Shown here: piece by piece, positions 21,705-57,254 of the stretch | Layout of the letters: every line of letters starts with the position of its first letter | Numbering within the stretch: the stretch's first letter is position 1 | DNA from: a virus | Taxonomy: Duplodnaviria; Caudoviricetes | Virus record (IMG/VR): IMGVR_UViG_3300021256_001754 | Span: 64,001-128,000 of that record | Strand: one strand, 5' to 3' | DNA length: 64,000 nucleotides | Translations under genes and position numbers: made by a program | Notes under the pieces: generated by a model | What the model was told of the DNA's origin: nothing | Databases searched by the model: none | The model's input: only the letters and a program-made list of their open reading frames with translations

Positions 21705-22412
21705 ATGGCTGTAATTAGTAAGATATTTAAGCCCCGTAGAGGACTGGCAAGCACTATGCAAGGAAGTAAGGCTGGTACTGTACTGGCAGACGGTGAGATG
21801 TTCATAGAAGTACAGGGAACAACCGTAGGAAAGGCTAAATGTAAGATGAAAATGGGTGATGGAACCACTGCATACTCATCTCTTCCATATGCAATGGGTG
21901 ATACATCGTCTGATCCGATCACATTCACACCAAACTCTGCAACAACAGCAGAGACAGCACTTGCATCAGCAACATCCGGTGCTACACTTGCAACTATCGT
22001 TGCAGCAATGAAGAGAGCTATTTCTCTTAACGCTGAGTCAATCACTCAACTAAATGATGACCAAAAAGATTTATCAAATGTAATAGGTACAATGGTTATA
22101 CAACAATATTCTATAAATACTGTAAACTCAGCAGATTTTTTACTTTATAAAAATAACAAAATCGTGAATATCTTTAATGCTGGTTCAATACATTTTCTTA
22201 GTAATGTTGGTGCATATTCTACTGTTACCCTTTTCAATATTCCAGAAGCTTATAGACCGGTGGACGATGATATTTATATCCCTATAATTGGAGCAAACGG
22301 CAAAAGACACCTACTTACGATACACATAGACGGAATTGCGGCAATAGATTCTTGGGTGGACTCTATTGATGCAGGGACATATTTATCAGCTAATGGTGTT
22401 TACATACTCTAA
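21705..22412 (+). CDS. short tail fibre / receptor-binding protein; putative expression locus of the tip-cassette system
   Basis: GGAGGT RBS; residues 1-117 paralogous to N-termini of 18366 and 45089 fibres; junction CTAAA-TGATGAC-CAAAAA at 22055-22061 (LN-DD) followed by a tip domain (LFNIPEAYRP). Confidence 0.85.
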   Translation: MAVISKIFKPRRGLASTMQGSKAGTVLADGEMFIEVQGTTVGKAKCKMKMGDGTTAYSSLPYAMGDTSSDPITFTPNSATTAETALASATSGATLATIVAAMKRAISLNAESITQLNDDQKDLSNVIGTMVIQQYSINTVNSADFLLYKNNKIVNIFNAGSIHFLSNVGAYSTVTLFNIPEAYRPVDDDIYIPIIGANGKRHLLTIHIDGIAAIDSWVDSIDAGTYLSANGVYIL

Positions 22413-22435
22413 ACTATAAACGAATACACAACTGT

Positions 22436-22786
22436 GATGACGTAACTTCGCTAAATGACGCTATTACCCCTACAACACTATCTGGAGTTAATACACATGG
22501 TGCTAAATTTGATAATGGAATGCTATTTTTATGGGGTGAAACATCCCAACCCACAACAACTACAGGTGGGTATGTAAGTACTATAGATTTTCCGCATTCA
22601 TTTAAAGATCTTACTTATAGTGTAACTGCCACATTACAAGATGTAGGTCATGGATATTCAATAATTACAACAGCAGTTGCTGTTGGTATTAAATATACAA
22701 ATAAAATGACATTAAATGCAATTATTGAAAAAACGTATCCTGGTTATACATATATTTATTGGATAGCTATTGGTACTTGGAAATAA
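22436..22786 (+). other. silent fibre-tip cassette C2 (116 aa, gp53/H-lectin-like)
   Basis: starts at TGATGAC 22435; DDVTSLNDAI...KFDNGMLFLWG...YWIAIGTWK; in-frame TAA at 22391, no ATG before the site. Confidence 0.85.
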
Positions 22787-22790
22787 GTCT

Positions 22791-23156
22791 AATGACGCAA
22801 TAAATAAAAATTGGACTAAACTTGGAGATTATAATTTTCAAAATGGTACCAGAGTAGATATTTCTAATATTACTCTTGATGACAAAAATAAGAGATTTAG
22901 AAGGTATAGTATTAATCCTAATAGTTATATAGATATAAATCTTGAAGGTGGTTGGACTTATATTGTAAGCACATCTGGTAATGCATGGAGTGGTGTATAT
23001 ATTATCCAAATGAGAGAAACAGTTGGTTCTAATATGGAAATATATAATATTATAACTGCAGGTGGATGGTCTGTATCTTCTGTAAATAGTTTTACACTTC
23101 GTATTTCTAATACTGACCCAAATTATACTTGTTCGACATACCTTTCTCATATATAA
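22791..23156 (+). other. silent fibre-tip cassette C3 (121 aa, variant site TAATGAC)
   Basis: site 3 nt after C2 stop; NDAINKNWTKLG... echoes the LNDAI of C2. Confidence 0.7.
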
Positions 23157-23169
23157 ATATCAAAATATT

Positions 23170-23195
23170 CCCAGTAGGAGTTATATCCTACTGGG
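23170..23195. terminator. CCAGTAGG-family hairpin closing the expression-locus cassette array
   Basis: CCCAGTAGGA...TCCTACTGGG. Confidence 0.75.
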
Positions 23196-23203
23196 GTTAT
23201 TTA

Positions 23204-23617
23204 TTATTCTAATTTCTCTTTGATTGTATTCTCTACATCTTTGCTTATATTAAAATCCGGATTCTGCTGTCTTATAGTTAAAGATTCTTTTACAGCACCA
23301 TATATAGAACTTATTAGTGCTTCTGTGATAATCTTTGGTGCTAACTCTTTAACCAAAACATTGAGTCTGCCAGTTTTCAATAAGTTATAGACTTCATCTT
23401 TTACATACTCGTCTATATACTTCTCTGTAGATTTCTTAATCTGATTGTTTATAGCGAATCTCATAGCATTATCACCAGTCAATCCACTATCATTGATCTT
23501 TTCATTTACTCTAGATTTAATCTCGTCTTTTACAAGCTGTTCAAATTCATAGTCGTTGATATTATCAACAGCTTCCTTAACTGCTTCTTCTACAGCTACT
23601 TTATTTTCTTCATCCAT
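23204..23617 (-). CDS. hypothetical protein
   Basis: 137 aa, AGGAGGAG RBS. Confidence 0.7.
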   Translation of the reverse strand: MDEENKVAVEEAVKEAVDNINDYEFEQLVKDEIKSRVNEKINDSGLTGDNAMRFAINNQIKKSTEKYIDEYVKDEVYNLLKTGRLNVLVKELAPKIITEALISSIYGAVKESLTIRQQNPDFNISKDVENTIKEKLE

Positions 23618-23640
23618 AAGATATTCTCCTCCTAATAGAT

Positions 23641-23844
23641 TTATTTATTTTTATATTCCATTATTGTTGTATGGAAAGGTTCACTACACTGAGGACAATT
23701 TACAACTTTATATGTTTTATCTGTTTCTTTATCATAAACCTTTTCTGTATCCTCATTCTCATAAGTAAATACACAACCACAATTAGAACAAGTTGCTCTC
23801 TTTTTGGTACCAAATTTTATAATTGTTATCATAATAACCCCCAT
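23641..23844 (-). CDS. small zinc-ribbon protein
   Basis: CSNCGC...CPQC. Confidence 0.65.
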   Translation of the reverse strand: MGVIMITIIKFGTKKRATCSNCGCVFTYENEDTEKVYDKETDKTYKVVNCPQCSEPFHTTIMEYKNK

Positions 23845-23994
23845 CCCAATCTAATTTATTATAAATGTCGACTCTATAATATTTTTATATAATTGGAATC
23901 AATTTGATAATACCGATTTGATTATAAGTATTACCAATAAAATAATATTTGGATATATACTATAAAAATAGAATAATAAAGGAGGATAGTTTAT

Positions 23995-24609
23995 ATGGAA
24001 AACTATGTATTTGAAACTCAATTTGATACTTATGGTTATTTATCACATATAGAGTGTGACAACAAGATTGATATCTCTGATAAGAATGTCAAAATATTAC
24101 TTGACGTATTATCTAGATCTCTCGGTTCGATGATTAAGAGAAACTATAACATGCGTATACAGGTAAGAAATTATCAGGATTATCCAGATCATGATCTTTA
24201 TGTTCATGTAACGGTTGACAAGTTATGTAGAAAAGGTGTAGAGATAAAATTAATTCCACCAACTGATAAATGTACATATACCATGGTATGTACAAATCCT
24301 AAGATGATGTATCATTTTAACGACGAGGATGAAAACAAAGAAGAGTGTTTAGAGGACGATAATAACGACAACGCTAAACTTGATGCTAAATACGATGAGA
24401 TATTGTATGAGAAGTATGAGGCTAAAAAGAATATTAAAAATATAGCTGTTATCCTCCTTACAGACATATCATTATCAATACTGAAGCTTGGAATAATGTA
24501 TACAAAATTTGTCGGTTACGATGATACGATGTATGAAAAGGTTATAGGTGAATCTAGATATAATTTTAGTACAAATGAGTTTGTTATTGAAATCAAAAAG
24601 GAGATTTGA
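23995..24609 (+). CDS. hypothetical protein
   Basis: 204 aa, AAGGAGG RBS, TATATACTATA upstream. Confidence 0.7.
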   Translation: MENYVFETQFDTYGYLSHIECDNKIDISDKNVKILLDVLSRSLGSMIKRNYNMRIQVRNYQDYPDHDLYVHVTVDKLCRKGVEIKLIPPTDKCTYTMVCTNPKMMYHFNDEDENKEECLEDDNNDNAKLDAKYDEILYEKYEAKKNIKNIAVILLTDISLSILKLGIMYTKFVGYDDTMYEKVIGESRYNFSTNEFVIEIKKEI

Positions 24610-24692
24610 TAAAACAGTTAAATCACAATAAAAAGAAAAGTACCAATTAAGGTACTTTTCTTTTTTTTTTTTTATTTTATAATTCTGGATAT

Positions 24693-24974
24693 GATGACTT
24701 AATCAAAAGACAGACAGTAAAAACGGGTGTAACCGGAACAATAATACCTGCTAATGGGGCACAATTATATCACTTACCACCGACAATACCGAGTGGATAT
24801 ATCTATCTTTGCGTTAATATCCGACAAGTTGGAACCGCAAATGGCTGGTTGTATCACGAGTTTTGCCAAGATGAAAATTACTCTTTGGTAATATTTAATC
24901 GTTATTCGAGTGATATAAATCAACCGTATGCAATTGATTATTTCTTTATAAAGGCAAATGTATTGCCGTATTAA
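24693..24974 (+). other. silent fibre-tip cassette C4 (93 aa; absent from ORF track)
   Basis: TGATGAC at 24692; hand translation DDLIKRQTVKTGVTGTIIPANGAQLYHLPPTIPSGYIYL...IDYFFIKANVLPY*; in-frame TAA at 24648. Confidence 0.8.
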
Positions 24975-25015
24975 ATTAGAATAAACTAAAATTAAAGCTA
25001 CCACAACATTTTATT

Positions 25016-25144
25016 ATATGGTGGAGGAAAAGTGTAGACTCTAGTTTATATACTTTAACTTTCGAGTATACGAAGTACAAGGTTGTTTAAACGAGGTAGA
25101 AGCCGACCATGCAAGGTGACAGAAATTCAAATCCTTGCCCATAT
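25016..25144 (+). ncRNA. tRNA-like structured RNA, copy 1
   Basis: ATATGG/CCATAT closing stem, D-arm-like GAG-GAAAAGTGTAGA-CTC, T-arm-like GCAAGG...TTCAAAT-CCTTGC. Confidence 0.7.
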
Positions 25145-25170
25145 TAAATTTTTGAGGAGAGCATCAAGAA

Positions 25171-25272
25171 ATGAATAAATATCATTATGTAATTATTGCT
25201 TTGATATTTTTATTCGGTGTCGAAATCGGTTTTGCAATAGGTGCGTATGTTGCACAAAACTTTTTAAAATGA
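25171..25272 (+). CDS. 33-aa single-TM peptide
   Basis: MNKYHYVIIALIFLFGVEIGFAIGAYVAQNFLK after GAGGAGAGCATCAAGAA. Confidence 0.5.
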   Translation: MNKYHYVIIALIFLFGVEIGFAIGAYVAQNFLK

Positions 25273-25470
25273 AATATTAAAATCTTTGCAAGGAGATTAT
25301 CGAGAATGAAATATTTTAAATTACACCGATTCTTACATCCTTTAAGGTGGCAGGAAATGCAATTCTTTTTTGATTTTCCATATCATGATTTTGATTTCGG
25401 AAAATTTAGAAGATAACTATTTTAAAACGAAATATTAAAATCTTTATATAGAGCATCAAGAAATAAATGA

Positions 25471-25594
25471 ATGTGGTGGTGGAATAGAGTAGACACAAAT
25501 ATTAAATTGTATGGTTGAGTCTGTTGACCCCAGACAGTTATATTGGTACAAATTGACCGTGTAAGGTGACAGAGATTCAAATCCTTACCCACAT
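25471..25594 (+). ncRNA. tRNA-like structured RNA, copy 2
   Basis: ATGTGG/CCACAT, GTG/CAC D-stem, GTAAGG/CCTTAC T-stem; near-identical to copy 5. Confidence 0.7.
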
Positions 25595-25616
25595 TAATTT
25601 TTAGAAAGAGGTTGCT

Positions 25617-25793
25617 ATGTGGATATGTAAAATAGAACCTAATGTAGCTTTATTAAAGTTAGGTGTTTATGAATGTTCTAATTGTCATAAAACCTTGATT
25701 GCATTATCGGAAGACGAAGCAAATACAAAACAACCTAGTATTAGCAATTATATTTTTTGTCCATATTGTGGTAAAGAGCATAATAAGAAATAA
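25617..25793 (+). CDS. 58-aa zinc-ribbon protein
   Basis: YECSNCHK...FCPYCGK; GAAAGAGG RBS. Confidence 0.65.
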   Translation: MWICKIEPNVALLKLGVYECSNCHKTLIALSEDEANTKQPSISNYIFCPYCGKEHNKK

Positions 25794-25797
25794 ATGG

Positions 25798-25958
25798 ATG
25801 TGGTGGAGGAAAAGAGTAGACTCTATAAAGGTAGATGTTAGTGTGACGCTTGTTGGGAATGTAAGCCGAGATAAATCTAAGCTATGAGGAAACCCTAGGC
25901 TATGTACGACCTATATAACATCATGCAAGGTGACAGAAATTCAAATCCTTGCCCACAT
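25798..25958 (+). ncRNA. tRNA-like structured RNA, copy 3
   Basis: ATGTGG/CCACAT, GAG/CTC, GCAAGG/CCTTGC with longer central region. Confidence 0.7.
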
Positions 25959-25984
25959 TAACTAGACTTTTGAAATGATCCTTA

Positions 25985-26013
25985 ATACCAGTAGGATATT
26001 ATTCCTACTGGTA
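25985..26013. terminator. CCAGTAGG-family hairpin
   Basis: ATACCAGTAGGA...TCCTACTGGTAT. Confidence 0.75.
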
Positions 26014-26078
26014 TATTTATAGCCAAAACATTATTATAAATAAGGCCTATTTAATTTTAAAGATAAGGAGAAAATGCC

Positions 26079-27254
26079 ATGGATACTCCATTATTTGTTA
26101 TCAAAAATATTTTTGAACATGAACTTGTTCCTGCTTTTAGAGTTATGTCTGCTAGATATAATGAAAGCAATAACAATAGTATGCTGGATATTACTGATAA
26201 TTTATGTGATATCACAAATAAGATTGTTACCGATTGTGAGTGTAGTGCTGTAATAGCAACGTTTAACCCAGATAAACCAAAATTCGGTGTTTATGTAAGC
26301 CCTACAATAATCGATTCAGATCTTACAAAATTTATCTTTGATAAAGAGGATATGAAATTAACACGATATTCTGCAGAGATAGATTTAGGAATGTTTGATC
26401 TTCTTACTCCTGAAGAAGTAGCAGCTGTATATATTGAGGAAATAACTACAGTAATGAGTAAGGTTACTATCGATAAGGTAAGAGGTATATTTGAAACTAT
26501 TATGACTGATAGAGATCTTACGATTAATTTTAGAGAATCAGTAAATTTCTCTCAGCTATTAATATTTGGTATAAAGGATACAATTCGTAAAGTTGCATCT
26601 TGCATATACAAACCAGAAGATGAACTTGGTACAAATGAATATGCTATAGAGTTTGGTTATAACGAGGCTTTGAAAACTATTATAGCAAAACTACATACAT
26701 TTATTTGCGATGGTATGGCTGTGGAAGTTAATCCTAAACTTAGTGTATTAAGCTGGGTTCTTTCTGTATATAACGAGCCAAGTATCAATTACAGACTTAT
26801 GCTTGAAGATCTTAATGCTGCTTTAGCATTAACAGGTTCTAAACTTGAACAGGATGAAGTATCTAAAACTATAACAAGTCTTAGAAGAGCAACAAATGAA
26901 ACTCTTGTAGAGACGGTTATTAAAGAAGATAGTTTATTTAAGAATCTTAAGCAGAATGGTTTACGTTCTATAGAAGACGATCTTTATGAATATAAGATAA
27001 GGGTTAAGACTTGCGAAACAGAAGACGATGCAATGTATATTCTACATCAGGTATCTACAAGAATAAATATTCTTGAAGATTACTTATATAATACACCAAA
27101 TTTATCTGAATATGAAATTCAGAGATGGACAAATGTAATTAATGCCTATAAACAGTTAAGACTCGAAATCAGCAAGAAACCTATAGTTGATAAGAAACGT
27201 TATGGTATATTTGTTGATTATGATTATCTTGATAGGCTTGATAATAAAGACTGA
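26079..27254 (+). CDS. probable virion structural protein
   Basis: 391 aa, AAGGAG RBS, AACA-N6-TA at 26027. Confidence 0.55.
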   Translation: MDTPLFVIKNIFEHELVPAFRVMSARYNESNNNSMLDITDNLCDITNKIVTDCECSAVIATFNPDKPKFGVYVSPTIIDSDLTKFIFDKEDMKLTRYSAEIDLGMFDLLTPEEVAAVYIEEITTVMSKVTIDKVRGIFETIMTDRDLTINFRESVNFSQLLIFGIKDTIRKVASCIYKPEDELGTNEYAIEFGYNEALKTIIAKLHTFICDGMAVEVNPKLSVLSWVLSVYNEPSINYRLMLEDLNAALALTGSKLEQDEVSKTITSLRRATNETLVETVIKEDSLFKNLKQNGLRSIEDDLYEYKIRVKTCETEDDAMYILHQVSTRINILEDYLYNTPNLSEYEIQRWTNVINAYKQLRLEISKKPIVDKKRYGIFVDYDYLDRLDNKD

Positions 27255-27269
27255 TAAGGTGGTATAGAA

Positions 27270-28163: not shown

Positions 28164-28257
28164 ATAACACGATAAGTTGCTGTAGGATATCTATTATCTA
28201 TAATAAAAATATCCAGTAGGTTATTAAACCTACTGGATTTCTTAAAAGGAGGTATAT

Positions 28258-29060: not shown

Positions 29061-29114
29061 AATATAATACCTCCTGTATAAATTATATAAATGTCTATAT
29101 AAAATTATACTACT

Positions 29115-29480
29115 GATGATTTTACTCTTTTGTGGACAAATCCTAATATAATTGCAGAATTTGCTGCACAAAAACTTTCAATTAATTTATCGAATTATAA
29201 AGGTGTTTTTATTGATTTTTTAGAGTATATTGGTGAATCTGTTCGTCAGAATATTGTAAATATTATTGCAATGGTGGGCACACCATATAATTATATTATA
29301 TTTGCTCCATTTTTTCAAAAAATGGACGAATCTGAAACTCCTTTAACACAAAATATGTCAGGTAGAGAATTTAAAATTTTAGATAACACAGGAATTACTT
29401 TTTATAACACTTATACTATAAAAGGTATAAATAATAAATTATGTATACCTTATAGAATTTATGGTATTAAACATAATTAA
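29115..29480 (+). other. silent fibre-tip cassette C5 (121 aa)
   Basis: TGATGAT at 29114; DDFTLLWTNPN...FAAQKLSINLSNY...IPYRIYGIK typical Firmicutes-phage tip; in-frame TAA at 29100. Confidence 0.85.
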
Positions 29481-29552
29481 TCAAAATAATATTTCTTGTA
29501 CTGATCTTTGATTATTCTATATAAAAGTTTATTATATCTTCTAGAGATATCT

Positions 29553-29954
29553 CTAGAAGATATATTTTGGGTTTATACTTCTAATTTTATCATAAACAGC
29601 TTTCGTTATTGGTATTTGATCATAATCTTCTACACTCCAAATTTTTTCTAATATATCTTCTCCTACTCTATATAAAGTACAAAGACTTCCATCCATACCA
29701 GTAACTTTTTCCGGAATATTTTCTATATTATCAATAATCTCTTTATCTATAGTAACCAAATTATCAGGTACATAATCAATTTTTAACGATCTTTTTGCAA
29801 TTATATTTTTATTATTGATTATTTCTTTTGGTAAATAATTTCTTCTACAAGCACCTTTAATAAAATTTATAATACCATTTTCAGTAATTAAAAATGCATG
29901 ATCTGTAATACCCCATCCAGATTCTCCGATATAAACAAGATATTTATAATTCAT
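29553..29954 (-). CDS. hypothetical protein
   Basis: 133 aa, AAGGAGG RBS. Confidence 0.65.
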   Translation of the reverse strand: MNYKYLVYIGESGWGITDHAFLITENGIINFIKGACRRNYLPKEIINNKNIIAKRSLKIDYVPDNLVTIDKEIIDNIENIPEKVTGMDGSLCTLYRVGEDILEKIWSVEDYDQIPITKAVYDKIRSINPKYIF

Positions 29955-30014
29955 ATTAAACCTCCTTTTAATTATAAAAAAGTTTTATAACTATTAATCG
30001 TTTATTATACTGCT

Positions 30015-30353
30015 GATGACGTAACTTCGCTAAATGACACTAAACTAAATAATACTGCTTATGTTATATCAGAGCATTTTGTTGCTAATACAATATCAAT
30101 ACAATATACTATGCCTTCACAACCAACATGTGGATTATTAATAATATCTGCATTTTATGATGGACAAGATCAATATGGATCAATTTGTATATCAGTCCCA
30201 TATAATGGAGGAGCTATTTCATGCATATCACCTGGTATTGAATCATATAGTCCTATAATAACTTATATTGATATTATTAATAACCAGGTTAATATATCTC
30301 TTGAACATCAGCAGTCTTGGGGAGGCTCGACAAAACTTATATACATTAAATAA
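30015..30353 (+). other. silent fibre-tip cassette C6 (112 aa)
   Basis: TGATGACGTAACTTCGCTAAATGAC identical to start of C2; in-frame TAA at 29988. Confidence 0.85.
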
Positions 30354-30360
30354 TATAAAT

Positions 30361-30678
30361 GATGATTGCGTTGAGCTTGCATCGTATTCTAATACCACTC
30401 GAACAACCATTAATTTAGCTGATAATATTACTAATTATAAATTTTTAATGTTGAATTTATATACAGGTGGACAGCTCAATACTACAGTAATAACAACTGT
30501 ACAGGATTTTATAAATAATTCTGGAGTTTTAAGACCAATTGTGGTTAATTTAGCCGCAGGAGCTTATCGATATTGGCAAACTATTGCTATTTACAATACA
30601 AATACATCAATTTTAGGAGAATGTGTGACAGATTTTCCTTCAAATGTACCATCAGCAAAACTTTTTGGAATTAAATAA
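30361..30678 (+). other. silent fibre-tip cassette C7 (105 aa)
   Basis: TGATGAT at 30360, 6 nt after C6 stop; TINLADNITNYKFL...KLFGIK tip pattern. Confidence 0.85.
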
Positions 30679-30705
30679 CTTTGGAGAGTATTAAAAACAA
30701 AATTA

Positions 30706-30883
30706 ATGTGGTGGCGGAATAGACATCAAGGAAGATGGTAAAAATTGTGTGCTGTGATTACAACAGAGTCAATTAATAGTAGACGCTTTATCGAAAATGT
30801 ATACCTACGGCAAAATGGAACATTGTTAGAAAGACAAGTAGTCCGTTAAACTTGTCATGTAAGGTGCAAATCCTTACACACAT
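30706..30883 (+). ncRNA. tRNA-like structured RNA, copy 4
   Basis: TTAATGTG/CACATTAA, GCGGAATAG...GTAGACGC with insertion, 7-nt T-loop GTAAGG-TGCAAAT-CCTTAC. Confidence 0.65.
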
Positions 30884-30895
30884 TAAATTTGGAGT

Positions 30896-31019
30896 ATGTG
30901 GTGGCGGAAAAGTGTAGACGCAAATATTAAATTGTATGGTTGAGCCAGTTGACCCCAAACAGTTATATTGGTACAAGTTGACCATGTAAGGTGACAGAAA
31001 TTCAAATCCTTACCCACAT
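30896..31019 (+). ncRNA. tRNA-like structured RNA, copy 5
   Basis: GCG/CGC D-stem, GTAAGG/CCTTAC; near-duplicate of copy 2. Confidence 0.7.
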
Positions 31020-31153
31020 TAATTTCGTGAAAACCTCGTGATTTTGGAGAACATAATGAGTACATGGTTAGAATGTTTATTCGGAATATGGCTTGTATTG
31101 AATATCTTTAAAACCATTAAAGACCTTGCATCATAATTGGAGAGCATCAAGAA

Positions 31154-31320: not shown

Positions 31321-31641
31321 ATGAATATCATAGAAACAATCATAGCTATTTTATTTAGCTTAATATATATCGGAGCTAACATTCTTGTTATGCTTGATGA
31401 CAAAATTAGTAATTTTGGTAATGTAGATGGATTTAAAAAGACTTATCTGTCAGATATCGGAAATAAGTTTGAAGTAGTAAATGATTCTTCGAATTGTCTC
31501 ATACCTATTTCAGAACTTCCGGAAGGAGGAAATGGTAATATTGTGGCCATTTGGATTGGATATGTACAAAATGTTGGAAATAGATTATATGTCAAAGATA
31601 ATGAAGGAGCAGTTAGATACATCCTTTTAACAGAACCTTAA
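31321..31641 (+). CDS. chimeric ORF: 25-aa TM N-terminus fused at TGATGAC to cassette C8 (31396..31641)
   Basis: hydrophobic MNIIETIIAILFSLIYIGANILVML then DDKISN...; site at 31395. Confidence 0.65.
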   Translation: MNIIETIIAILFSLIYIGANILVMLDDKISNFGNVDGFKKTYLSDIGNKFEVVNDSSNCLIPISELPEGGNGNIVAIWIGYVQNVGNRLYVKDNEGAVRYILLTEP

Positions 31642-31680
31642 ATTTAAAATAGTCAACAAAGTAAACTACCATCGTGAACT

Positions 31681-31887
31681 GATGACATAAATAGTAAATT
31701 TGGATTTATTGATAGTTCTAAAGTTGAGTTTGAATTATTCGAGGGTAGATTTTTGATCACTATATATCAAAATGATACTTATAGAAAGCGTATAGATTTT
31801 AACCCAGTAAATAATACTATCAATCTTTGTGATACTGTTAATGGGAAGTATGTTATAACAAATAGATTAGATTTCCCAAGAGTATAA
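31681..31887 (+). other. silent cassette C9 (68 aa; absent from ORF track)
   Basis: TGATGAC at 31680, in-frame TGA at 31675; DDINSKFGFIDSSKVEFELFEGRFLITIYQ...RLDFPRV*. Confidence 0.75.
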
Positions 31888-34016: not shown

Positions 34017-34019
34017 AAT

Positions 34020-37696: not shown

Positions 37697-39871
37697 TTAT
37701 CTTTTTGGTGTTAATTGTGCTTTTACTGTAGCTTTGATATCATCCATAGTTACAGTTTCTTTATTAGTACTATTTATACCGGTGTCGTTATCCATAAAGT
37801 ATATAGGCTTTATAATCTTTCTCTCAGGAATATCATTAGACCTATCAACCAGTTTTGGATTAATAAAGTCTTGTGGTCTTTCCATAGCAAATGGATCAAG
37901 ATTTGATGGTTTATATAATACATGATTAGCCGCACTGGTTAATGTCTTCTTCAACTTACTTCCCTGAAGTCTTACACTAATTCTAGGAGAATTTGTTATA
38001 GCGTCTTCAAGAGTTATAAGCTGATATCCAGCATTAGACTGTTCCCAATCAGGCTCTAATAATATATCATCCGGATGTCTAATCTGATTAGAGATAAGAA
38101 CCTCAAAATGTACAGAATTGATCTTTATACCACCCTGCAGATTATATGCAATGAAATCCTGAAGTAATGTATTTCTGTCATGCATCTTGATAGAAGACTT
38201 ATTATCTATAAGATTCTTAATCTGCTTCATGGTTTTAGATAACTCATTGTTTTGAATATCTATATAGAATAGATTCAATCCAATCATTCTTGTAAGAGGA
38301 AGTACATAAACACCATCATCGTTTACATCTTCTTTTTCAAGTTCTGATATAAGGTCGTCATCTAAATAAATAGGATCGGACTCATTGGTATAAATAGATT
38401 CTATTCTACCATCAGGATATTGAATCTGGAAGTTGTATACATAATCATTGTTATCCTCATCTACATCTGTAGCACCCTCTACATCATCGTCTCCACTGTC
38501 AGATTCATCTATAATATTATCAGGATCAATAATAAGATTATATCTTCTATAATCTACATTATCTTTTAAGATGATTCTGTCATATTCTACATTAAACAAA
38601 TCGTAGAATGATTGAACCCATGTCATTTTGATAATAGACGCTTCAAGAAGATGTTTAGCAGACAATAATCGCTGAGTATATTTTGAAGATAATTGTTCCG
38701 AAGCAATCTGTCCAACGTTGATATCGTTATTAAGATAAGCCAATAAACCATAGCATCTATAACAGATACCAAATCCTTTAGCCGCAGATGCACATGTAAT
38801 AGGAGATCTAAATAATAATGTCTTACCGATAAGATGTTTATCAATCTCAGCGTTTAGAATATGCTCTACACCATCATATGATAACTTATAATATCGCATG
38901 TCAAACATGCTGAGCATGCTATTATCTTTGATATATACTTCTTCAAAGTTCTTTGTATCACATGAATACTGTGGATCAGGATTAAGGAAAGTATCCATAT
39001 TATTTAATCCTAATCTACGAGCAAATGCACCAGATTGTCCTACATTCTGTTTTGATATAATCTGTGCTATACGTCCTATAGAACTATCGATAACGATATC
39101 TTCTATACTCTTTAAACCACCATTGATAAAACTATGGTTTATAGGATGTGTAAATAGACCACCTTGACCATTAGGTTTAGGACCTATACATACATTAACT
39201 TCAGCAAACTGTTTAGGGTTTGTACCCTCTCCAGTCTGAAATGCATATTTCTGATTATGAGTAGATTCTGGTGCTGTAATATATTTCTGCTGAATCTTCT
39301 CATTTTTCATAATAAGCTCTTTAGCATCCTGCATTGGTACACCTGTTAAATCCAAATGCATTGTCTCATTAAATTCAGGATACTTTCTCATAAGCTCTAC
39401 AGTATCGTCAAAATCGACACTATTAGCAAAAAACATTTGATAGTTCTGTAGAGGTATAAACTTACTTATGCATCTATCTATGGACTGATTGATAGTTATT
39501 CTATCCATAGTCCTTAGATTTTTTCTTATGAAAAACTTATTTATATAATTAACCATCCAGTCTGTTTTTATGACCGGTTCAAATACAATATGCTTTGTAT
39601 CAATCTCTTTTCCAGATCTAGTAATCAAAGTCCAAAACATTAGATTGTATAAATACTGCTCTATATACAAACTACAATCTCCATGTCTGAAATGAATATT
39701 TATCTTAAATCTCTGCACTTCAGGATCTTCTATTCCATCATCTAAGATAGAAAGGATATTCTTGAAGTGATCATCGATGTTATCGTCGTTAATATCTTTG
39801 GTGTAAATATCTTGTACACCATTCTGTGCTAATTCTTTGTAATATCCGTAATTTTCAAAGTGTGGTAACAT
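37697..39871 (-). CDS. multisubunit RNA polymerase beta-prime C-terminal subunit (probably non-virion RNAP)
   Basis: GRIAQIISKQNVGQSGAFARRL, CDT...RSPITC...GICYRCYG, NVGQIASEQLSSKYTQRLLSAKH, VHFEVLISNQ. Confidence 0.9.
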   Translation of the reverse strand: MLPHFENYGYYKELAQNGVQDIYTKDINDDNIDDHFKNILSILDDGIEDPEVQRFKINIHFRHGDCSLYIEQYLYNLMFWTLITRSGKEIDTKHIVFEPVIKTDWMVNYINKFFIRKNLRTMDRITINQSIDRCISKFIPLQNYQMFFANSVDFDDTVELMRKYPEFNETMHLDLTGVPMQDAKELIMKNEKIQQKYITAPESTHNQKYAFQTGEGTNPKQFAEVNVCIGPKPNGQGGLFTHPINHSFINGGLKSIEDIVIDSSIGRIAQIISKQNVGQSGAFARRLGLNNMDTFLNPDPQYSCDTKNFEEVYIKDNSMLSMFDMRYYKLSYDGVEHILNAEIDKHLIGKTLLFRSPITCASAAKGFGICYRCYGLLAYLNNDINVGQIASEQLSSKYTQRLLSAKHLLEASIIKMTWVQSFYDLFNVEYDRIILKDNVDYRRYNLIIDPDNIIDESDSGDDDVEGATDVDEDNNDYVYNFQIQYPDGRIESIYTNESDPIYLDDDLISELEKEDVNDDGVYVLPLTRMIGLNLFYIDIQNNELSKTMKQIKNLIDNKSSIKMHDRNTLLQDFIAYNLQGGIKINSVHFEVLISNQIRHPDDILLEPDWEQSNAGYQLITLEDAITNSPRISVRLQGSKLKKTLTSAANHVLYKPSNLDPFAMERPQDFINPKLVDRSNDIPERKIIKPIYFMDNDTGINSTNKETVTMDDIKATVKAQLTPKR

Positions 39872-40461: not shown

Positions 40462-42342
40462 CTATCCCGATTTTTGTCCAAGTGCTGCTCTTATAGATTC
40501 CAAATCATTTAGATCCAATTTATTCTGTGGTTCATTCATAAAGAATATTGGAACTATTACATTTGGTTTTGTTATCTGAGGATTTGGATCATTCATACTA
40601 TCAAGCTCATCTACAGAATCATCCATAACTACAGGTTCGTTAAGTGTATATACACTATTTGAATCTGAGAAAGTATTATCTTTCTTAGAAGTACCGGTAG
40701 ATATAATATCATTAATAGTAGACAATACATTAGAAGAAGTTGTTCTAACTGATGGCTGTCTACCATTTATCATCTTATTCATATGGAGATAAGTCTTATA
40801 CATTGGAGGAGTATCTAAATCTTCCAATAGTCTAATACCGCTTCCATATACAAATGGTTGAGCTATATAAGTAAGATCGGTTTTAACTCTTTTCTTGGTT
40901 AAGTTAAATACCATATATTTATTTCCCTCATCGTCGTAATCTAGATTTATAATAATTCCTAAATCCAAATTATCCAGCATAAGGAATGATTCACCTGTAT
41001 TAGACATACCAAGTTGCATTGTTATATCTGTAGGTGTTGCTCTTGCTTTATCTTGCTCTACAGCTCTAGCGGCTTCTCTATTAAGATGAGATACTGTGAT
41101 AAACGGAATATCTTTTTCAACTGCAAATGACTTAAATTCATTTACGACATTACCAAGTTCAATTCTAAGATCGGGAGTATATTCAGAAGATCTTATTCTC
41201 TTTACATGGTCCTGTATTACACATATAACTTCATATCCATCATCTTCCATATCTTCACACATATCGTATAGAAAAGTTGTATCAACTGTTCTATTGGCTT
41301 TATACCTAATTACCATATCGATAGGTGAATCATTTGTAAGTTTCAATTCTCCATCTACACGGAGTTTTCTAATAACTTCTTCCTTAGTAAAATTTTCCAT
41401 ACCAGAAGATGAGGTTATAAGATCAAATAGTCTATCTATAGTTTCTACTACAGAGTTCTCCATGGTAAGCATTACTACACATGGTTGTTTAGTTGGATCT
41501 TTTGGTTTATAATGCTTATTGTATTTTCTAATCTGATACATCAGGTTTAACAAAGTAACAGATTTTCCTATGTTTGTTATACCTAAAAGCATATATACAC
41601 GACCGGATTCAAATCCACCATTAATCATTTCATTGAATCCTTGCATACCAGTTACAAGTTTTCTAGATGGATTTGTAAGTAGATCGTAAGTTTCACCCAC
41701 TACATCTTCAAATATACCATCTCTCAAACTAAATACCATGTCTACGTTATTTGTAGATACTCTTGATTTTCTAAATTTAGAATGTGTATCGTTTACCAAT
41801 ACTTCAAAGTCATCTATCAAATGACCTTTACCTTCATATTCAGTTTTTGTTATAGCCGTACATACAGTCAAAAAATCTGGTGCCGCCATATAAGCAAATG
41901 CGAATTTGATATTATGCTCTATCATCTCATTTGCCCATTTTATCTCATTTGTAGTTAATAAGAATCTATCGATATTATTTGGATCTATAAAATCAGGTTT
42001 AAAATCCAAAGTTCCAAGTATATGATCTATCATTATATCCTGATCTGTAATCTTATAATCCATTCTAACTTCTAGAGCTTTTTTAATAAATTCTACATAA
42101 TGAGTTTTATTAAGATCATTAATATATACTTGAGGATTCAATAAATTTAAAAACTTCTTTAGATTATTTAAGTGATTCAAACGAATCAAATTGGATACAG
42201 TTACAGAATATCGTGCTAATATTCTAAAAGATCTTAAAGGTAGATTTAGAGATACAGTCTTTTTTACCTTAGGGGTCTTTATCTTTTTTGTATCATTAAT
42301 ATCAAATTTATCAATTACCATAATAAGATTACCCTCTTCCAA
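40462..42342 (-). CDS. DnaB-like replicative helicase
   Basis: GGFESGRVYMLLGITNIGKS, LTMEN, IQDHVKRI, TVSHLNR. Confidence 0.85.
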   Translation of the reverse strand: MEEGNLIMVIDKFDINDTKKIKTPKVKKTVSLNLPLRSFRILARYSVTVSNLIRLNHLNNLKKFLNLLNPQVYINDLNKTHYVEFIKKALEVRMDYKITDQDIMIDHILGTLDFKPDFIDPNNIDRFLLTTNEIKWANEMIEHNIKFAFAYMAAPDFLTVCTAITKTEYEGKGHLIDDFEVLVNDTHSKFRKSRVSTNNVDMVFSLRDGIFEDVVGETYDLLTNPSRKLVTGMQGFNEMINGGFESGRVYMLLGITNIGKSVTLLNLMYQIRKYNKHYKPKDPTKQPCVVMLTMENSVVETIDRLFDLITSSSGMENFTKEEVIRKLRVDGELKLTNDSPIDMVIRYKANRTVDTTFLYDMCEDMEDDGYEVICVIQDHVKRIRSSEYTPDLRIELGNVVNEFKSFAVEKDIPFITVSHLNREAARAVEQDKARATPTDITMQLGMSNTGESFLMLDNLDLGIIINLDYDDEGNKYMVFNLTKKRVKTDLTYIAQPFVYGSGIRLLEDLDTPPMYKTYLHMNKMINGRQPSVRTTSSNVLSTINDIISTGTSKKDNTFSDSNSVYTLNEPVVMDDSVDELDSMNDPNPQITKPNVIVPIFFMNEPQNKLDLNDLESIRAALGQKSG

Positions 42343-51351: not shown

Positions 51352-51375
51352 AATTCTGATAATAATACGATAAAA

Positions 51376-51413
51376 AATATTACCGGTAGGATATAACTCC
51401 TACCGGTAATATT
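51376..51413. terminator. bidirectional hairpin
   Basis: AATATTACCGGTAGGA...TCCTACCGGTAATATT. Confidence 0.75.
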
Positions 51414-52363: not shown

Positions 52364-52535
52364 TTATTCTCCTCTCATTAGTATTTAAATAATTAATTGC
52401 TATATAGGAATAATCTACTGTCAATATAAAAAATACAATAGCTAATATGAATTTTCCTATAATTGCAGCATACCAGGCAATTCCCCCAAGAATAATACCA
52501 GTTATAACAATAATAATTTTACCAATTTTTCTCAT
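52311..52535 (-). CDS. small two-TM protein
   Basis: hydrophobic helices; TATATACTATA upstream. Confidence 0.55.
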   Translation of the reverse strand: MRKIGKIIIVITGIILGGIAWYAAIIGKFILAIVFFILTVDYSYIAINYLNTNERRINESEETNSMEKDERSSY

Positions 52536-52649
52536 TCCTTTAAATTATGTCTCCTCTCATTTATGTCATATTTATAGTATATATTCAAAATATATTTTTA
52601 TAAAACTATTTAAAATCCTAGAGGAACAATATCCTCTAGGAATATTTAT

Positions 52650-53036
52650 TTATATAGTAGCAGGTATACATATATAAGGCAAATCATTAAAACATGTCTT
52701 ACCATTACCCATTTTCATGTATACATCATGTCCATCTTTTACAAGTATAAGTTCTCTATCATGTAAAATTGGATTTAATTCTCTTAAATTTTTCAAAGTA
52801 TCAGTACGAAGTTTTACATAGTATCTTGATTGAGAATAATCTTCATACTGTTCATAAGTTATCAATCCTCGTTCATAATTATTCTTCAATTCTTCTTTTG
52901 TGAAATCAGAATCTTTATTAGTATATATGACATCACTTTTAAAAGATCTATTAAGCATCTTATCTCTATCACGAAGATATACGATCCATAATATCATATT
53001 AACAATAACAACCACAGCAATAATACAATTAAACAT
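52650..53036 (-). CDS. membrane-anchored protein with C-terminal Mtd-N-like domain
   Basis: TM N-terminus; LRTDT...NPILHDRELI...MKMGNGKTCFNDLPYI. Confidence 0.6.
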   Translation of the reverse strand: MFNCIIAVVVIVNMILWIVYLRDRDKMLNRSFKSDVIYTNKDSDFTKEELKNNYERGLITYEQYEDYSQSRYYVKLRTDTLKNLRELNPILHDRELILVKDGHDVYMKMGNGKTCFNDLPYICIPATI

Positions 53037-53112
53037 TTATTCTACCTCCGATTATTAAAATTGTTAAAGAGTTCTGTATAAAATATATTTTTGATAATTC
53101 TCTTAACCGCTT

Positions 53113-53343
53113 GATGACAAACCAAAAATATTACGCATTACACAAATAACTAATGAGGTTGGTAGTTTTACAATACCACGCACAGAAATCCCTAGTGATT
53201 TACATTATATTATCGGAATTTATGGTTCATCTAATGGAAACTATTATGTTGTTCAATATAATAATATTATATATGGTGTATTTAATTATACTCATACACC
53301 ATATAGCGAACAAACCTTAACAATAGATTTTGTATATATTTAA
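53113..53343 (+). other. silent cassette C10 (76 aa; absent from ORF track)
   Basis: TGATGAC at 53112, in-frame TAA at 53104; DDKPKILRITQITNEVGSFTIP...QTLTIDFVYI*. Confidence 0.8.
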
Positions 53344-53528
53344 AGGAGAATCATATTCATTAGTTAAAGTTACATCTAAGAAACAACTATTTGAAAATTA
53401 TTCTCCAACTTTATTATATTTATTATAAAAAGAAAATCCCTGGAGAATCATTCTCCAGGGATAATGTTTTGTTTCAAAAGTCCACATTCGATAACAAACT
53501 GTGTACTATAATAAATATAGTTAGCAGT

Positions 53529-53897
53529 CTACGGTTCTACATCCGGCTCTTTCATTGGATTATCATTTATAATTATTTCAAAATGACTATAGGTGCCATC
53601 ACCGTTATTATCGTCATATCTTATCTTTTTATGTAGATCAAAACTACATAAATAGTACATATTACTTAACCATATTTGAGCTGATTCACCATTAGTAAAC
53701 TCTACATTTAATTTTATTTCTGAATCTTCATATTGAATAACAGAGAATGTTTTTATTATACCGGTATATTTATTATAATATCTAGCACCAGAAAAAGAAC
53801 AATCATGATCATCTATCAAAGTAACATTGAGTTTTCTATTAGTGATATATTTTAAAGTCTTGACAAGTTTTCTTCTAGAAATATAATCTTCTTTCAT
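53529..53897 (-). CDS. hypothetical protein
   Basis: 122 aa, AGGAGG RBS. Confidence 0.65.
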   Translation of the reverse strand: MKEDYISRRKLVKTLKYITNRKLNVTLIDDHDCSFSGARYYNKYTGIIKTFSVIQYEDSEIKLNVEFTNGESAQIWLSNMYYLCSFDLHKKIRYDDNNGDGTYSHFEIIINDNPMKEPDVEP

Positions 53898-53966
53898 AAT
53901 ATAACCTCCTAATTTATTTTAAAGTTTTCGTTATTGTAATTATTTATTAAAATAAATTATACTACT

Positions 53967-54287
53967 GATGACCAAAAATATAAATTTTACGGTATGTACC
54001 AAATAACTGTAGAAATCGTGTCTATTTCTGCACCAGCATCTTTTAATGAATTATTATTTGAAATAGGTATAACTAATAATACTCAATTGTATGGTTGTAA
54101 ATCATTTATAATACCAAAACTAGAAGATGATCAAAATATTATATCGACAGGATCAATTTATAACGGAAGCGGAGATCTCTGTAGTAGTAGTGGTGCATAT
54201 ATATTTTGTGTAGTTGGAACAATAAAAATGCATTTATTCGAAACTCCTATAAAAGGAACAATATCAACTAGAATTTATTATAGATAA
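53967..54287 (+). other. silent cassette C11 (106 aa)
   Basis: TGATGACCAAAAA identical to expressed junction; in-frame TAA at 53937. Confidence 0.8.
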
Positions 54288-54298
54288 ATTATATTGCT

Positions 54299-54637
54299 GA
54301 TGATTTGGTGAATATTCGTAACTCTATAGCACGTTTCCAGTTTGGTACAGCTCAGACTTATAATGCTAGATATATAAAAGCACCTCTTGCAGAAAGAATA
54401 ATAACATCTGGTGGGTGGCCATGTATAGCTATTGCAACCGGCAAATCTGGTGCCGATCCATACTTAGCTTTAGGAACAATAGATTGGCTTGGAGGTATTG
54501 GTGAAACTGTTATTACTAAAGGTTGGTCTAGTGCAGTTAAATTTACTGTAACTGATAATAAAACTACTGTTACATTTGATGCTTTATCTTCTGCTTCATA
54601 TATCAAACTTACAGTATTCCAATTTTTCACCGACTAG
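54299..54637 (+). other. silent cassette C12 (112 aa)
   Basis: TGATGAT at 54298, 10 nt after C11 stop. Confidence 0.8.
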
Positions 54638-54643
54638 CAAGCT

Positions 54644-55033
54644 GATGACGTAAATAATATATTTCAAGGTCCAACTATAATGGATGCAAATGCTGCTCCG
54701 GTTGGTATAAGTTTCTTACCAATCGAAGCAGCAAATAACCCTTTAAATTCTTGGGCAACACTTATCACTACTTGTCCACAAGCTAATTATAAACAGCAAA
54801 TATGTACACCATGGTTTAATAATTTTAGAGAAATATGTTTTAGAGTTTATGATTATGATGGTTGGAAATCGTGGTCATTAATTCCATCAACAAGTCTTGG
54901 CGACCCTTTGAATGTAACTAATACAAATTTGTCTTGGACCGCTGCAAGTGGACGACAAAATGATTGTACCCCTGTACATTATGATGGTAGAGCATTTATT
55001 TATGTAGATGGTAATAAATTATACCTTACATAA
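54644..55033 (+). other. silent cassette C13 (129 aa, knob-like)
   Basis: TGATGAC at 54643, 5 nt after C12 stop; DANAAP...QQIC...FRVY...WKSW. Confidence 0.85.
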
Positions 55034-55216
55034 TATCATATTGATAATCTAAAAAGAAATTATCCCTAGGATTAATACCCTAGGGACAATTTATAATTTT
55101 CATAAATAAATTGGGAGATTTATTTTATGACATTATTTTATAGTTGTAAATTAAATCTTTTACAAATATATACTATAATTGTAGAAACATAAAAACCTAT
55201 ATGGAGGAAATTAAAA

Positions 55217-55804
55217 ATGAGCAATTTAATGATGTGCCCACATTGTGGGAAAGTTTATTTAAAAGAAACACTATCGGCTGATATTCAGGGTAGATATTTT
55301 TGTCCAGATTACGAGGATAGAAATAATGAGCTATTCGAAGTAGATGAGCAGATGGTTGTTGTTTTAAGACGTTTATGGGATTTAGGTTATTGGACAGAAT
55401 TCTGCTGTAGTGGTCATTATTCAGATACCAATCTTCCTTATATTCTGTTTGCTGATAGAGATCTTGCACCATGTACTCATCCTAAGAACTGGTTTATTCA
55501 GGATATAGAGTATTTGGATGATAATGACAAACTTGTTCAGAGTAAAACCGGAATATATGGAATTGTATCTAGTAAGAAAATAACAACACCAGAAGAAAGA
55601 CAGATCCGTAACAATAAGCTTATGAATGAACTGGTTAAGTGGGTTATGGATCTTGAACCTAATCCTATACCAGAAGCTCATGATGCAACAAAATGCTTTA
55701 GAGATGGTGATTCCACATATTATGGAGAAGATGGTTATAATATCTTTCCAGATAAATGGATAACAAAGAGTACACATTGTAGATATAAGAGAAGACCAGA
55801 ATAA
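55217..55804 (+). CDS. zinc-binding hypothetical protein
   Basis: CPHCG, GYWTEFCCSGH; GGAGG RBS. Confidence 0.65.
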   Translation: MSNLMMCPHCGKVYLKETLSADIQGRYFCPDYEDRNNELFEVDEQMVVVLRRLWDLGYWTEFCCSGHYSDTNLPYILFADRDLAPCTHPKNWFIQDIEYLDDNDKLVQSKTGIYGIVSSKKITTPEERQIRNNKLMNELVKWVMDLEPNPIPEAHDATKCFRDGDSTYYGEDGYNIFPDKWITKSTHCRYKRRPE

Positions 55805-56019
55805 ATGTATTTATAAAGCTGAGGATAATTCCTCAGCTTTCTTTTTCGCATCTTCGACAGATTTACAAGCAAATACTCGTTGTCCGGCAGGATTATTCAT
55901 TATAAGAGTATAACTACCAGCTTCATATTTTATAACAAATTTCAAATCTACTGTATGGTAACAATTACCGCAACTAATCCATTTAATCATAAGAAATATT
56001 TCCTTTCGTATTTTATTTT

Positions 56020-56439
56020 TTATTCTTTTATAAACCATTCATAGAATAATTCAGGTTCTATACCTTCTTTAAAGCAGGATAATAATTTCTCTGCTGATAT
56101 TTCTATAACTTTTTTTCCAATACACATATTTATTATATATGCATCATGATACTTGTTCAATTTCACTTTTTTATCATTTTTAAGTGTTGGTACAGTTAAA
56201 AAACAAGCATCAATGCCTATACAATTTGTAGTTATAAAAATCATTAATCGATGTAACCAATCGAGATAATTTATATATTCTTTTTCACATTCCGATCTAT
56301 ATTCGTTATCTTCTTTATTGTCTTTTAATGGCAGTATGGTCAAATGATTTTCACATATAAAAATACCAATAAAGAATAAGATAACCATAACCAAGAAAAT
56401 ACCAATAGCCACAATAATACTATAATATAATAACTCCAT
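56020..56439 (-). CDS. membrane-anchored hypothetical protein
   Basis: N-terminal TM helix. Confidence 0.6.
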   Translation of the reverse strand: MELLYYSIIVAIGIFLVMVILFFIGIFICENHLTILPLKDNKEDNEYRSECEKEYINYLDWLHRLMIFITTNCIGIDACFLTVPTLKNDKKVKLNKYHDAYIINMCIGKKVIEISAEKLLSCFKEGIEPELFYEWFIKE

Positions 56440-56552
56440 ACTTATACCCCCATAAATATTGATTTATAAGAATGTAATAGTGATGCTTATTTTATATATT
56501 TTATTTATATTTCACTTTGAAATAATATAATAATCTATAAGGAGGAAAGTGT

Positions 56553-56729
56553 ATGACATCTTGTAGAGATTGTTCTAGTAGAGTTGTATGGTATCATGGT
56601 ATTGGGAATATGGATAAATGTAAGTTTATACTATGTGGATTTAGACCTAAATTGAGAATGAAACCAAAGACAGTTCCAAAATGGTGTCCACGTATAGATG
56701 AATTGGAAAAGAAAGGAGATAAAGAATGA
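56553..56729 (+). CDS. 58-aa Cys-rich protein
   Basis: MTSCRDC...KWCP; AAGGAGG RBS. Confidence 0.55.
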   Translation: MTSCRDCSSRVVWYHGIGNMDKCKFILCGFRPKLRMKPKTVPKWCPRIDELEKKGDKE

Positions 56730-56902
56730 ATCCGGTTATATATTTTTTGATAACATATTCAATCGCTATAATATTTAGCTTGTTTATATTTATTATTGTT
56801 AAACTTTATAAAAAATATGGATTGTATGTAGCTGTACCTGTTATTCTTGAAATCGTTATTATAATTCTTATTGCTCTATTGATTCATGAATTAATGTATT
56901 GA
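56726..56902 (+). CDS. 58-aa two-TM protein
   Basis: hand-translated, ATGA-coupled, AAAGGAG RBS. Confidence 0.5.
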   Translation: MNPVIYFLITYSIAIIFSLFIFIIVKLYKKYGLYVAVPVILEIVIIILIALLIHELMY

Positions 56903-56936
56903 ATAAATATAATATCCATTCTTTTGGATTGCTTTT

Positions 56937-57254
56937 GATGACTTAAAATTCAGGATAAACGATGTTGCTAGAATATATGGTTTTTATAACAAGTTGTATG
57001 TTTATGTCAAAGATCTTTCGGCACAATATTTTTATGGAGCTGCAAAAGTTATTACTGAATATGGTGAAAATACAATTGGATTAATGGGCTACGATGGAAC
57101 ACAAACAGATACAAGTAGCCCTATAAAAACATATAAGCATAATAACAATGGTATGCTCGATATTCAATTTGTTTTCCCAAATACATATACACATGGAGTT
57201 TTATTATTAGGTGGTTCTGTAGTGAGAGGAAAAATAATAGATGGAACAGATTGA
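56937..57254 (+). other. silent cassette C14 (105 aa)
   Basis: TGATGAC at 56936, in-frame TAA at 56910. Confidence 0.8.

Follow-up and report, generated by a model that had tools for sequence, protein, structure and literature searches.

A putative genome-scale DNA shufflon for the tail-fibre tip of a rumen jumbo phage, with a six-base core purged from the rest of the genome

We analyzed a 64,000-nucleotide (nt) stretch, hereafter the window, of the Caudoviricetes record IMGVR_UViG_3300021256_001754, which corresponds to genome bases 64001-128000 of a single virus record of 249,585 bp (approximately 31% G+C) encoding multisubunit-RNA-polymerase-like, DnaB-like and very large virion proteins. 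Feature coordinates are those of the window, and those labelled "genome" refer to the whole record. Our analysis identified a tail-fibre gene (21705-22412, the anchor) and a scattered library of start-less C-terminal tips (the cassettes), each headed by the same core, TGATGA, that lies inside the anchor. We propose, with a probability of roughly 0.6, that these elements form a genome-scale DNA shufflon for the tail-fibre tip, based on reciprocal recombination in the TGATGA core by an Xer-like recombinase and operating via inversion. Tip switching would then take place by DNA cutting and rejoining, probably through the phage's own tyrosine recombinase.

In the proposed system, the anchor would provide the promoter, the ribosome-binding site and a constant segment of 117 N-terminal residues, and approximately 20 silent tips without a start codon would be available to it. 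Two other fibre genes of the window have N-termini 53% identical to that of the anchor, and a search with the anchor protein recovered 62 homologues that share the anchor N-terminus, most of them up to the residues L-N-D-D, and diverge afterwards. As in Rin-type shufflons, the constant 5' segment that carries the start (21705-22054) ends at the crossover site.

The window contains 16 copies of TGATGAY, all on the plus strand, compared with 34.6 expected on both strands. An earlier reading made from the letters of the window (the sequence-only reading) had described all sites as direct repeats, and this description holds for all 16. From 22435 to 56936, thirteen of them head frames that stay open for 68-129 codons and share the phase of the anchor site (xxT-GAT-GAY; Table 1). 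A stop codon lies 1-14 codons upstream of most cassette sites (37, 33 and 55 codons for 22877, 30360 and 31395, respectively), and none of them coincides with a start led by a Shine-Dalgarno (SD) sequence, an SD-like motif being present on 76% of the long open reading frames (ORFs) of the genome. The exception is the site at 31395, which lies 25 codons into the SD-led ORF 31321-31641; this ORF could represent another expressed fusion, or else a left arm with a start by chance. Start-less cassettes with a common phase and a common short asymmetric site, the arrangement of Rin-type shufflons, number 13-14 in the window, approximately 20 in the genome and 28 in a related genome fragment, G001 (described below). 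Genome-wide, 15 of the 28 TGATGA copies are preceded by a stop at no more than 20 codons and followed by 60 or more open codons, compared with 1-6% for eight control hexamers, an association with start-less frames that is far beyond chance.

The cassettes also appear to be maintained. With a stop expected approximately every 13 codons, open frames of 36-250 codons are kept by 20 cassettes in this genome and 28 in G001, two of them much shorter. The base before GAT is invariably T at cassette sites while the codon that it closes varies (N, C, A, T, L, Y), a constraint at the level of nucleotides rather than protein. Only six bases are conserved at the sites, and the cassettes are almost all mutually unrelated in sequence, with no shared downstream homology. 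The tight tandem spacing and the terminator hairpins reported in the sequence-only reading were both recovered: within the arrays, the gaps from a stop to the next site are 22, 6, 38, 10 and 5 nt, the interval 22786->22877 being exceptional (90 nt, or 7 nt when counted to a one-mismatch TGATGC at 22793), and terminator-like hairpins were located behind six terminal cassettes, at 23169, 29533, 31895, 53436, 55057 and 57309.

Outside these positions, TGATGA has been nearly eliminated from the genome. Only 26 copies are found on the plus strand and 2 on the minus strand; taking both strands together, 28 copies of TGATGA/TCATCA were seen against 170.5 expected under a fourth-order Markov model (z = -10.9). 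This makes it the most depleted hexamer of the genome, with a depletion over twice as extreme as that of the next one. Within 210 long ORFs, TGATGA occurs 8 times on the sense strand against 125 expected, and its complement once against 25 expected. The avoidance is visible in the choice of synonymous codons: in Asp-Asp/Glu pairs, the GAT:GAC ratio of the first Asp is 7:115 after a codon ending in T and 466:146 otherwise (Fisher p = 3e-51), and the same synonymous-codon avoidance was replicated in G001 (p = 1e-21). Since the antisense strands are purged as well, it is on DNA and not on mRNA that the signal is read. With little else conserved around the core, any stray TGATGA could act as a pseudo-site, which would account for the removal of the hexamer from both strands. 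Two copies persist inside long genes, both in cassette phase, at window position 19583 and at genome position 60003 (ORF 59266-60657); the former could be a tolerated site or a second anchor. Another hexamer, ATGTTA/TAACAT, is also scarce genome-wide (62 copies against 361 expected from base composition, or 107 by the fourth-order Markov model), and hexamers containing AACAT are generally rare. This scarcity may reflect a short promoter or another signal of the phage's own RNA polymerase.

Our searches for relatives found no DNA or protein match to the locus among GenBank phages, and an IMG/VR scan with a single protein recovered no relative, whereas an alignment-based IMG/VR scan yielded three usable ones (G001, G002 and G003). 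Metagenome scans recovered no relative with the C0 domain (the tip currently fused to the anchor) as query, and matches to unrelated contigs only with a 20-nt junction pattern. Alternative junctions at the core were found in DNA assemblies of related strains. The homology of four such loci (L001, L002, L003 and L006) to this genome stops at 22060-22065. In L002 and L003, which come from two samples (93.6% nt identity), the anchor region 21537-22065 is followed by an unrelated tip and then by 29519-30020, the flank behind cassette 29114 with the next core included. L001 (89%) matches the anchor up to 22060, continues with 2.6 kb of other cassettes and then resumes at 55058-56237. L006 (96.6%) also matches the anchor up to 22060, followed by a homologue of the minus-strand cassette at genome 53007->52574 and its flank, of which the last 86 nt are identical.

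The second line of junction evidence comes from G001, an IMG/VR fragment of 118.9 kb (48% complete) with an anchor N-terminus approximately 60% identical to that of the present genome. All 29 of its TGATGA copies are on the anchor strand, comprising the anchor site and 28 downstream sites that head start-less frames, with none elsewhere. A protein from a sister strain of G001 in which the upstream genes are conserved (P0009) is identical to the G001 anchor at 119 of 119 N-terminal residues. At its C-terminus, it matches the silent cassette G001:60022 with 96.5% identity over 115 residues. In a third relative (L012, a 20.8-kb locus), the lone TGATGA is its anchor site. Taken together, these comparisons indicate that silent cassettes become the expressed tip, with breakpoints at the core and with the neighbourhood of the cassette moving along. 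Junctions at the core combined with moved flanks argue for reciprocal site-specific recombination, and against both RNA joining and short-tract gene conversion.

The options of the sequence-only reading had included RNA-level joining at UGAUGA, either through trans-splicing or through a phage RNA polymerase that switches templates. Such joining would fit the lack of a recombinase in the window and the co-orientation of the cassettes downstream of the anchor. However, the fused genes are present in DNA assemblies, the purge extends to antisense strands, and no intron or ribozyme family was found with Rfam in the window, where tRNA and Rfam scans returned nothing and no family reached the gathering score. 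RNA-level joining is therefore close to refuted already. Hammerhead ribozymes (CUGAUGA), box C/D elements, leaderless AUG initiation, ribosomal bypass and stop-codon recoding were also considered and rejected, because of the reading frame (at 22435, ATG-ACG-TAA stops at once), the absence of an Rfam match and the DNA junctions.

Gene conversion was another option of that reading, in a one-ended form. In this model a silent tip is copied non-reciprocally into the anchor and the donor stays intact, as in Neisseria pilS-to-pilE and Borrelia vls. A silent, start-less and dispersed library is what such a system would use, and L006 seems to hold the 3' flank of its cassette twice, in inverted orientation. 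On the other hand, in L002 and L001 the cassette is followed by unrelated flanking genes, so that the whole downstream context has moved, and the cassettes offer only 6 bp of upstream homology and no shared downstream homology. We consider gene conversion very improbable.

For the joining on DNA, the genome offers one candidate enzyme. A single tyrosine recombinase is encoded at genome 222219-223253 (344 amino acids, aa; PF00589 E = 1e-36), outside the window and approximately 136 kb from the anchor. It is closest to the XerA, XerC and XerD models, its best solved relative is Pyrococcus XerA, and stretches with the usual catalytic Arg, Lys, His-x-x-Arg, His and Tyr motifs align to solved Xer proteins. 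No serine recombinase (PF00239), the resolvase family of Gin, Cin and Min, was found in the whole genome, and neither was a reverse transcriptase (PF00078, at E <= 1) or a member of the IS110, Y1-HUH or TnpB families. The missing reverse transcriptase and the mutual dissimilarity of the cassettes are unlike a diversity-generating retroelement. The statement of the sequence-only reading that no recombinase or reverse transcriptase lies in the window is thus confirmed, and the whole-genome search that it had suggested for opposite-strand cassettes and recombinases returned one cassette (genome 53007->52668), one tyrosine recombinase and no serine recombinase.

Homologues of the recombinase are 56-80% identical to it. 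The longest contigs that carry a recombinase homologue and those that carry an anchor homologue coincide at 255006, 255984, 256798, 14365 and 23057 bp, which suggests that the two genes share contigs; for the 14365-bp contig (L014) this was verified. There, the recombinase lies 1.5 kb behind the anchor, between two plus cassettes and one minus cassette, the plus and minus cassettes share a 97-nt perfect inverted repeat, and the site is AATAATGATTTAG. Such a layout is that of a classical shufflon and connects this family of recombinases with the cassettes; in the present genome, the same link would hold by analogy. More distant relatives differ in the site: L009 and L010 are not purged of TGATGA and have a longer shared cassette site, TCTATTAG-TGATGAT, with minus cassettes to the left of the anchor and plus cassettes to its right. 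G002 and G003 are also not purged, are without a recombinase homologue, and have unconvincing junction-sequence repeats.

These observations suggest the following mechanism. The XerA/XerC/XerD-like tyrosine recombinase is the likely enzyme and would act in trans, with TGATGA as the overlap region that both partners share; reciprocal site-specific recombination within this core would link the N-terminus to another tip, and switching would be frequent. Sites in inverted orientation are absent from the window and from the G001 fragment, and the genome has a single true opposite-strand cassette, M (genome 53007->52668, 113 codons), located to the left of both the anchor (by 33 kb) and the window (by 11 kb), at the opposite end of the structural-gene block from the anchor. 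Flipping of this 33-kb block (genome 53008-86054) would join the N-terminus to M, the arrangement of L006, and the N-terminus would then face the right-hand library in inverted orientation. A second inversion could join it to any plus cassette, matching the arrangements of L002 and P0009. When a block with the N-terminus at its right end flips, right-hand cassettes are always plus and left-hand cassettes always minus, as seen here and in L009 and L010. A system working by inversion alone would thus give the all-direct arrangement of the window, and the argument of the sequence-only reading that the geometry speaks against inversion does not stand. Of its options, two giant inversions involving opposite-strand sites beyond the window now have the best support, from M, L006 and the tyrosine recombinase, with the route itself still conjectural. 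Similarly, the mechanism that it had called unexplained has become less so, through DNA-level joining and a candidate enzyme, and the topological route keeps the label from being removed. The G001 contig ends approximately 2 kb short of the expected position of M, a weak hint at a possible break due to structural heterogeneity. The synteny of G000 with G001 (25-65% at the amino acid level) is too diverged to separate inversion from transposition.

Several observations weigh against the proposed shufflon. With 26 plus and 2 minus copies here (29:0 in G001), cassettes should have become distributed on both sides if every inverted pair could invert freely, and the near-total co-orientation implies that switching is rare or constrained, or that it takes another route. 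The junctions of L002 and P0009 fit deletion or excision-reintegration equally well. The recombinase is far from the locus and was not found in the G001 fragment (48% complete), and its role could be dimer resolution or plasmid-like maintenance. Six conserved site bases are unusually few for a tyrosine recombinase. Moreover, no rearranged isomer of this same genome was seen, the alternative junctions all being from diverged strains (79-97% nt identity), and L006 shows an odd inverted duplication at a 16-bp palindrome behind the cassette. This perfect palindrome, TTAAATAGCTATTTAA, has only two copies in the genome (genome 52295-52310 and 52574-52589, approximately 11.5 kb left of the window), where it flanks 263 bp just behind the minus-strand cassette. 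It is also found at L006:685-700; in L006, the 263-bp piece is inverted with respect to the cassette, whose 3' flank appears twice in inverted orientation.

Part of this evidence leads to an alternative route, recombination between direct repeats by the same or another enzyme. Tips would be switched between direct 6-bp repeats without loss of DNA from the genome, either through circles that are excised and reinserted at the anchor core, a genome-wide integron working in frame, or through deletion in part of the replicating pool, so that sub-genomic deletion derivatives serve only as late expression templates. Deletion between the anchor and a cassette in part of the pool can be likened to class-switch recombination. 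In its favor, right-hand silent cassettes are co-oriented with the anchor in two independent genomes, the junctions of L002/L003 and P0009 are the expected product of a 7-kb deletion or a reinsertion, and the asymmetry of the core is by itself no bar to excision. However, L006 requires inversion, its cassette being on the minus strand in the present genome. As the sequence-only reading had already noted, deletion to the far clusters also carries a cost: the RNA polymerase beta-like gene (37697-39871) and the DnaB-like gene (40462-42342) sit between the cassette clusters and would be lost in a deletion reaching the one at 53-57 kb. Circle integration of the integron type finds no match either, as no attC-like sites occur at cassette 3' ends, terminal cassettes are followed by ordinary terminator hairpins only, and integron-integrase models reach 74 and 52 bits, where the cut-offs are 265 and 435. 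Finally, relatives with an adjacent recombinase have inverted cassettes. We regard direct-repeat switching as unlikely on this balance. If it does operate, the recombinase would have a specificity of little beyond six bases and the 250-kb genome would have been recoded to tolerate it, a picture we consider equally doubtful.

It could also be argued that no programmed switch is involved. TGATGA would then be a domain boundary that tolerates recombination during co-infection, the cassettes would be stored or decaying pieces, and the purge and strand bias would reflect avoidance of a Type III-like host restriction enzyme requiring sites in inverse orientation. T7 and EcoP15I offer a known case in which a non-palindromic site survives with a strand bias, and both the origin of all alternative junctions in diverged strains and the lack of observed isomers fit this explanation. 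Against it stand the invariant T before GAT despite differing codons, the open frames kept by both sets of cassettes, and the fact that restriction avoidance would recode the cassette sites too, while every survivor in G001 is a cassette head or the anchor. An unprogrammed origin thus seems improbable to us.

The features of the anchor region and of the library, including one cassette beyond the range covered by the sequence-only reading, are listed in Table 1.

Table 1. Anchor, cores and cassettes identified in the window (aa, amino acids)
Feature	Position	Strand	Details
In-phase TGATGAT in the 764-aa fibre gene 18366-20660	19583..19589	+	codon 406
Anchor, constant part	21705..22054	+	strong SD (AGGAGGT), ATG, 117 codons ending ...ITQL-N; phrog_19976 tail protein
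Anchor crossover core TGATGAC	22055..22061	+	phase xxT-GAT-GAC (Asn-Asp-Asp), inside gene 21705-22412
C0, tip currently fused to the anchor	22056..22412	+	
Silent cassette C1 (116 aa), Gp53-like_C tail-fibre tip domain	22435..22786	+	Pfam PF21882, E = 1.8e-9
Silent cassette	22793..23156	+	one-mismatch core TGATGC at 22793, perfect core at 22877
Silent cassette (93 aa)	24692..24974	+	
Silent cassette (121 aa)	29114..29480	+	anchor N-terminus joined here in L002, L003
Silent cassette (112 aa)	30014..30353	+	
Silent cassette (105 aa)	30360..30678	+	
Cassette (81 aa)	31395..31641	+	in-frame 25-codon hydrophobic leader with SD and ATG (ORF 31321-31641)
Silent cassette (68 aa)	31680..31887	+	
Silent cassette (76 aa)	53112..53343	+	
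Silent cassette (106 aa)	53966..54287	+	
Silent cassette (112 aa)	54298..54637	+	
Silent cassette (129 aa)	54643..55033	+	downstream flank 55058-56237 found 2.6 kb behind the anchor in L001
Silent cassette (105 aa)	56936..57254	+	
Further cassette, TGATGAA (83 aa)	62171..62423	+	beyond the range of the sequence-only reading

Just upstream of the anchor promoter, the homology to sister strains starts within approximately 6 nt of a TGATGAT copy (window 21537-21549). In the sister strains this position has TAATGAT, and the gene upstream is a different one, with an HYW-x-CKC motif. A 512-bp module made up of the promoter and N-terminus (21543-22055), flanked by two plus-strand cores, was considered as a mobile unit and rejected, because L001 and L002 share the left-hand gene and differ on the right, and because the left boundary is TAATGAT and not TGATGA.

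Two further repeated elements are found around the cassettes. A conserved hairpin, CCCAGTAGGA-N6-TCCTACTGGG, recurs at window positions 23169, 25986, 51381 and 57310, and CCCAGT/ACTGGG is the third most over-represented hexamer of the genome (57 seen against 26.6 expected); the hairpin is probably the standard terminator of this phage. In addition, five copies of an element of approximately 140-200 nt lie at window 25000-25980 and 30690-31045, two of them directly behind cassettes. The element has a common 5' block (ATGTGGTGGnGGAAnAG..GTAGAC), a 3' block (AAGGTGACAGAAATTCAAATCCTTnCCCACAT) and a variable centre, and is recognized by neither ARAGORN nor Rfam; a permissive Rfam scan of 24950-26050 gave a single chance-level hit only.

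The proposed shufflon shares its logic with several known systems. The R64 shufflon (Rci), Mycoplasma Vpma (Xer1) and Vsa (HvsR) combine a tyrosine recombinase with one expression site that holds the promoter and 5' end and with many silent 5'-truncated genes. Unlike the library described here, these are compact bacterial or plasmid surface-protein loci with sites of 19-34 bp and silent genes in both orientations. As in Min (p15B), Cin (P1) and Gin (Mu), fibre C-termini would be chosen by DNA rearrangement at short sites on the boundary between constant and variable parts; those systems, however, rely on a serine invertase, an enhancer and a small invertible segment, whereas this genome has no serine recombinase. 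Integrons resemble the locus in that a single expression point is followed by co-oriented promoter-less cassettes and a tyrosine recombinase takes part; they differ in their attC hairpin sites and IntI-type integrase, both lacking here, and in that the present cassettes are in-frame protein domains and not whole genes. The closest parallel is the Rin shufflon of Bifidobacterium prophages, which uses an XerD-like, armless, phage-encoded tyrosine recombinase and an 11-bp asymmetric site (Mavrich et al. 2018, PMC6109161). Like the present system, it has a constant N-terminal segment of a receptor-binding protein and start-less C-terminal cassettes, each placed after a short asymmetric site (PMC6109161). 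Rin is compact, with an adjacent recombinase and cassettes in both orientations, whereas here at least 20 cassettes (28 in the relative) are spread over approximately 90 kb among essential genes, nearly all co-oriented, with a 6-bp core that is purged from the rest of the genome and a recombinase some 136 kb away. We therefore view the system as a large and scattered variant of a known host-range switch, that is, a Rin/Min-type shufflon at genome scale. What is new is the six-base core, its genome-wide purge, the large library scattered among essential genes, and the near-total co-orientation combined with a distant recombinase.

If this proposal is correct, the library of approximately 20 tips here and 28 in the relative would be among the largest receptor-binding-tip libraries known in a phage, and the system would be the first case in which a whole structural module, or segments carrying essential genes, joins the rearrangement. 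The purge of the core from both strands is a clean genomic footprint of self-inflicted recombination risk, and it provides a search rule for such systems, which is to look for the hexamer that is most depleted and strand-biased. A further question is how an Xer-like enzyme can be specific when so little of its site is conserved. In ecological terms, the library suggests a range of many host specificities within a single rumen jumbo phage.

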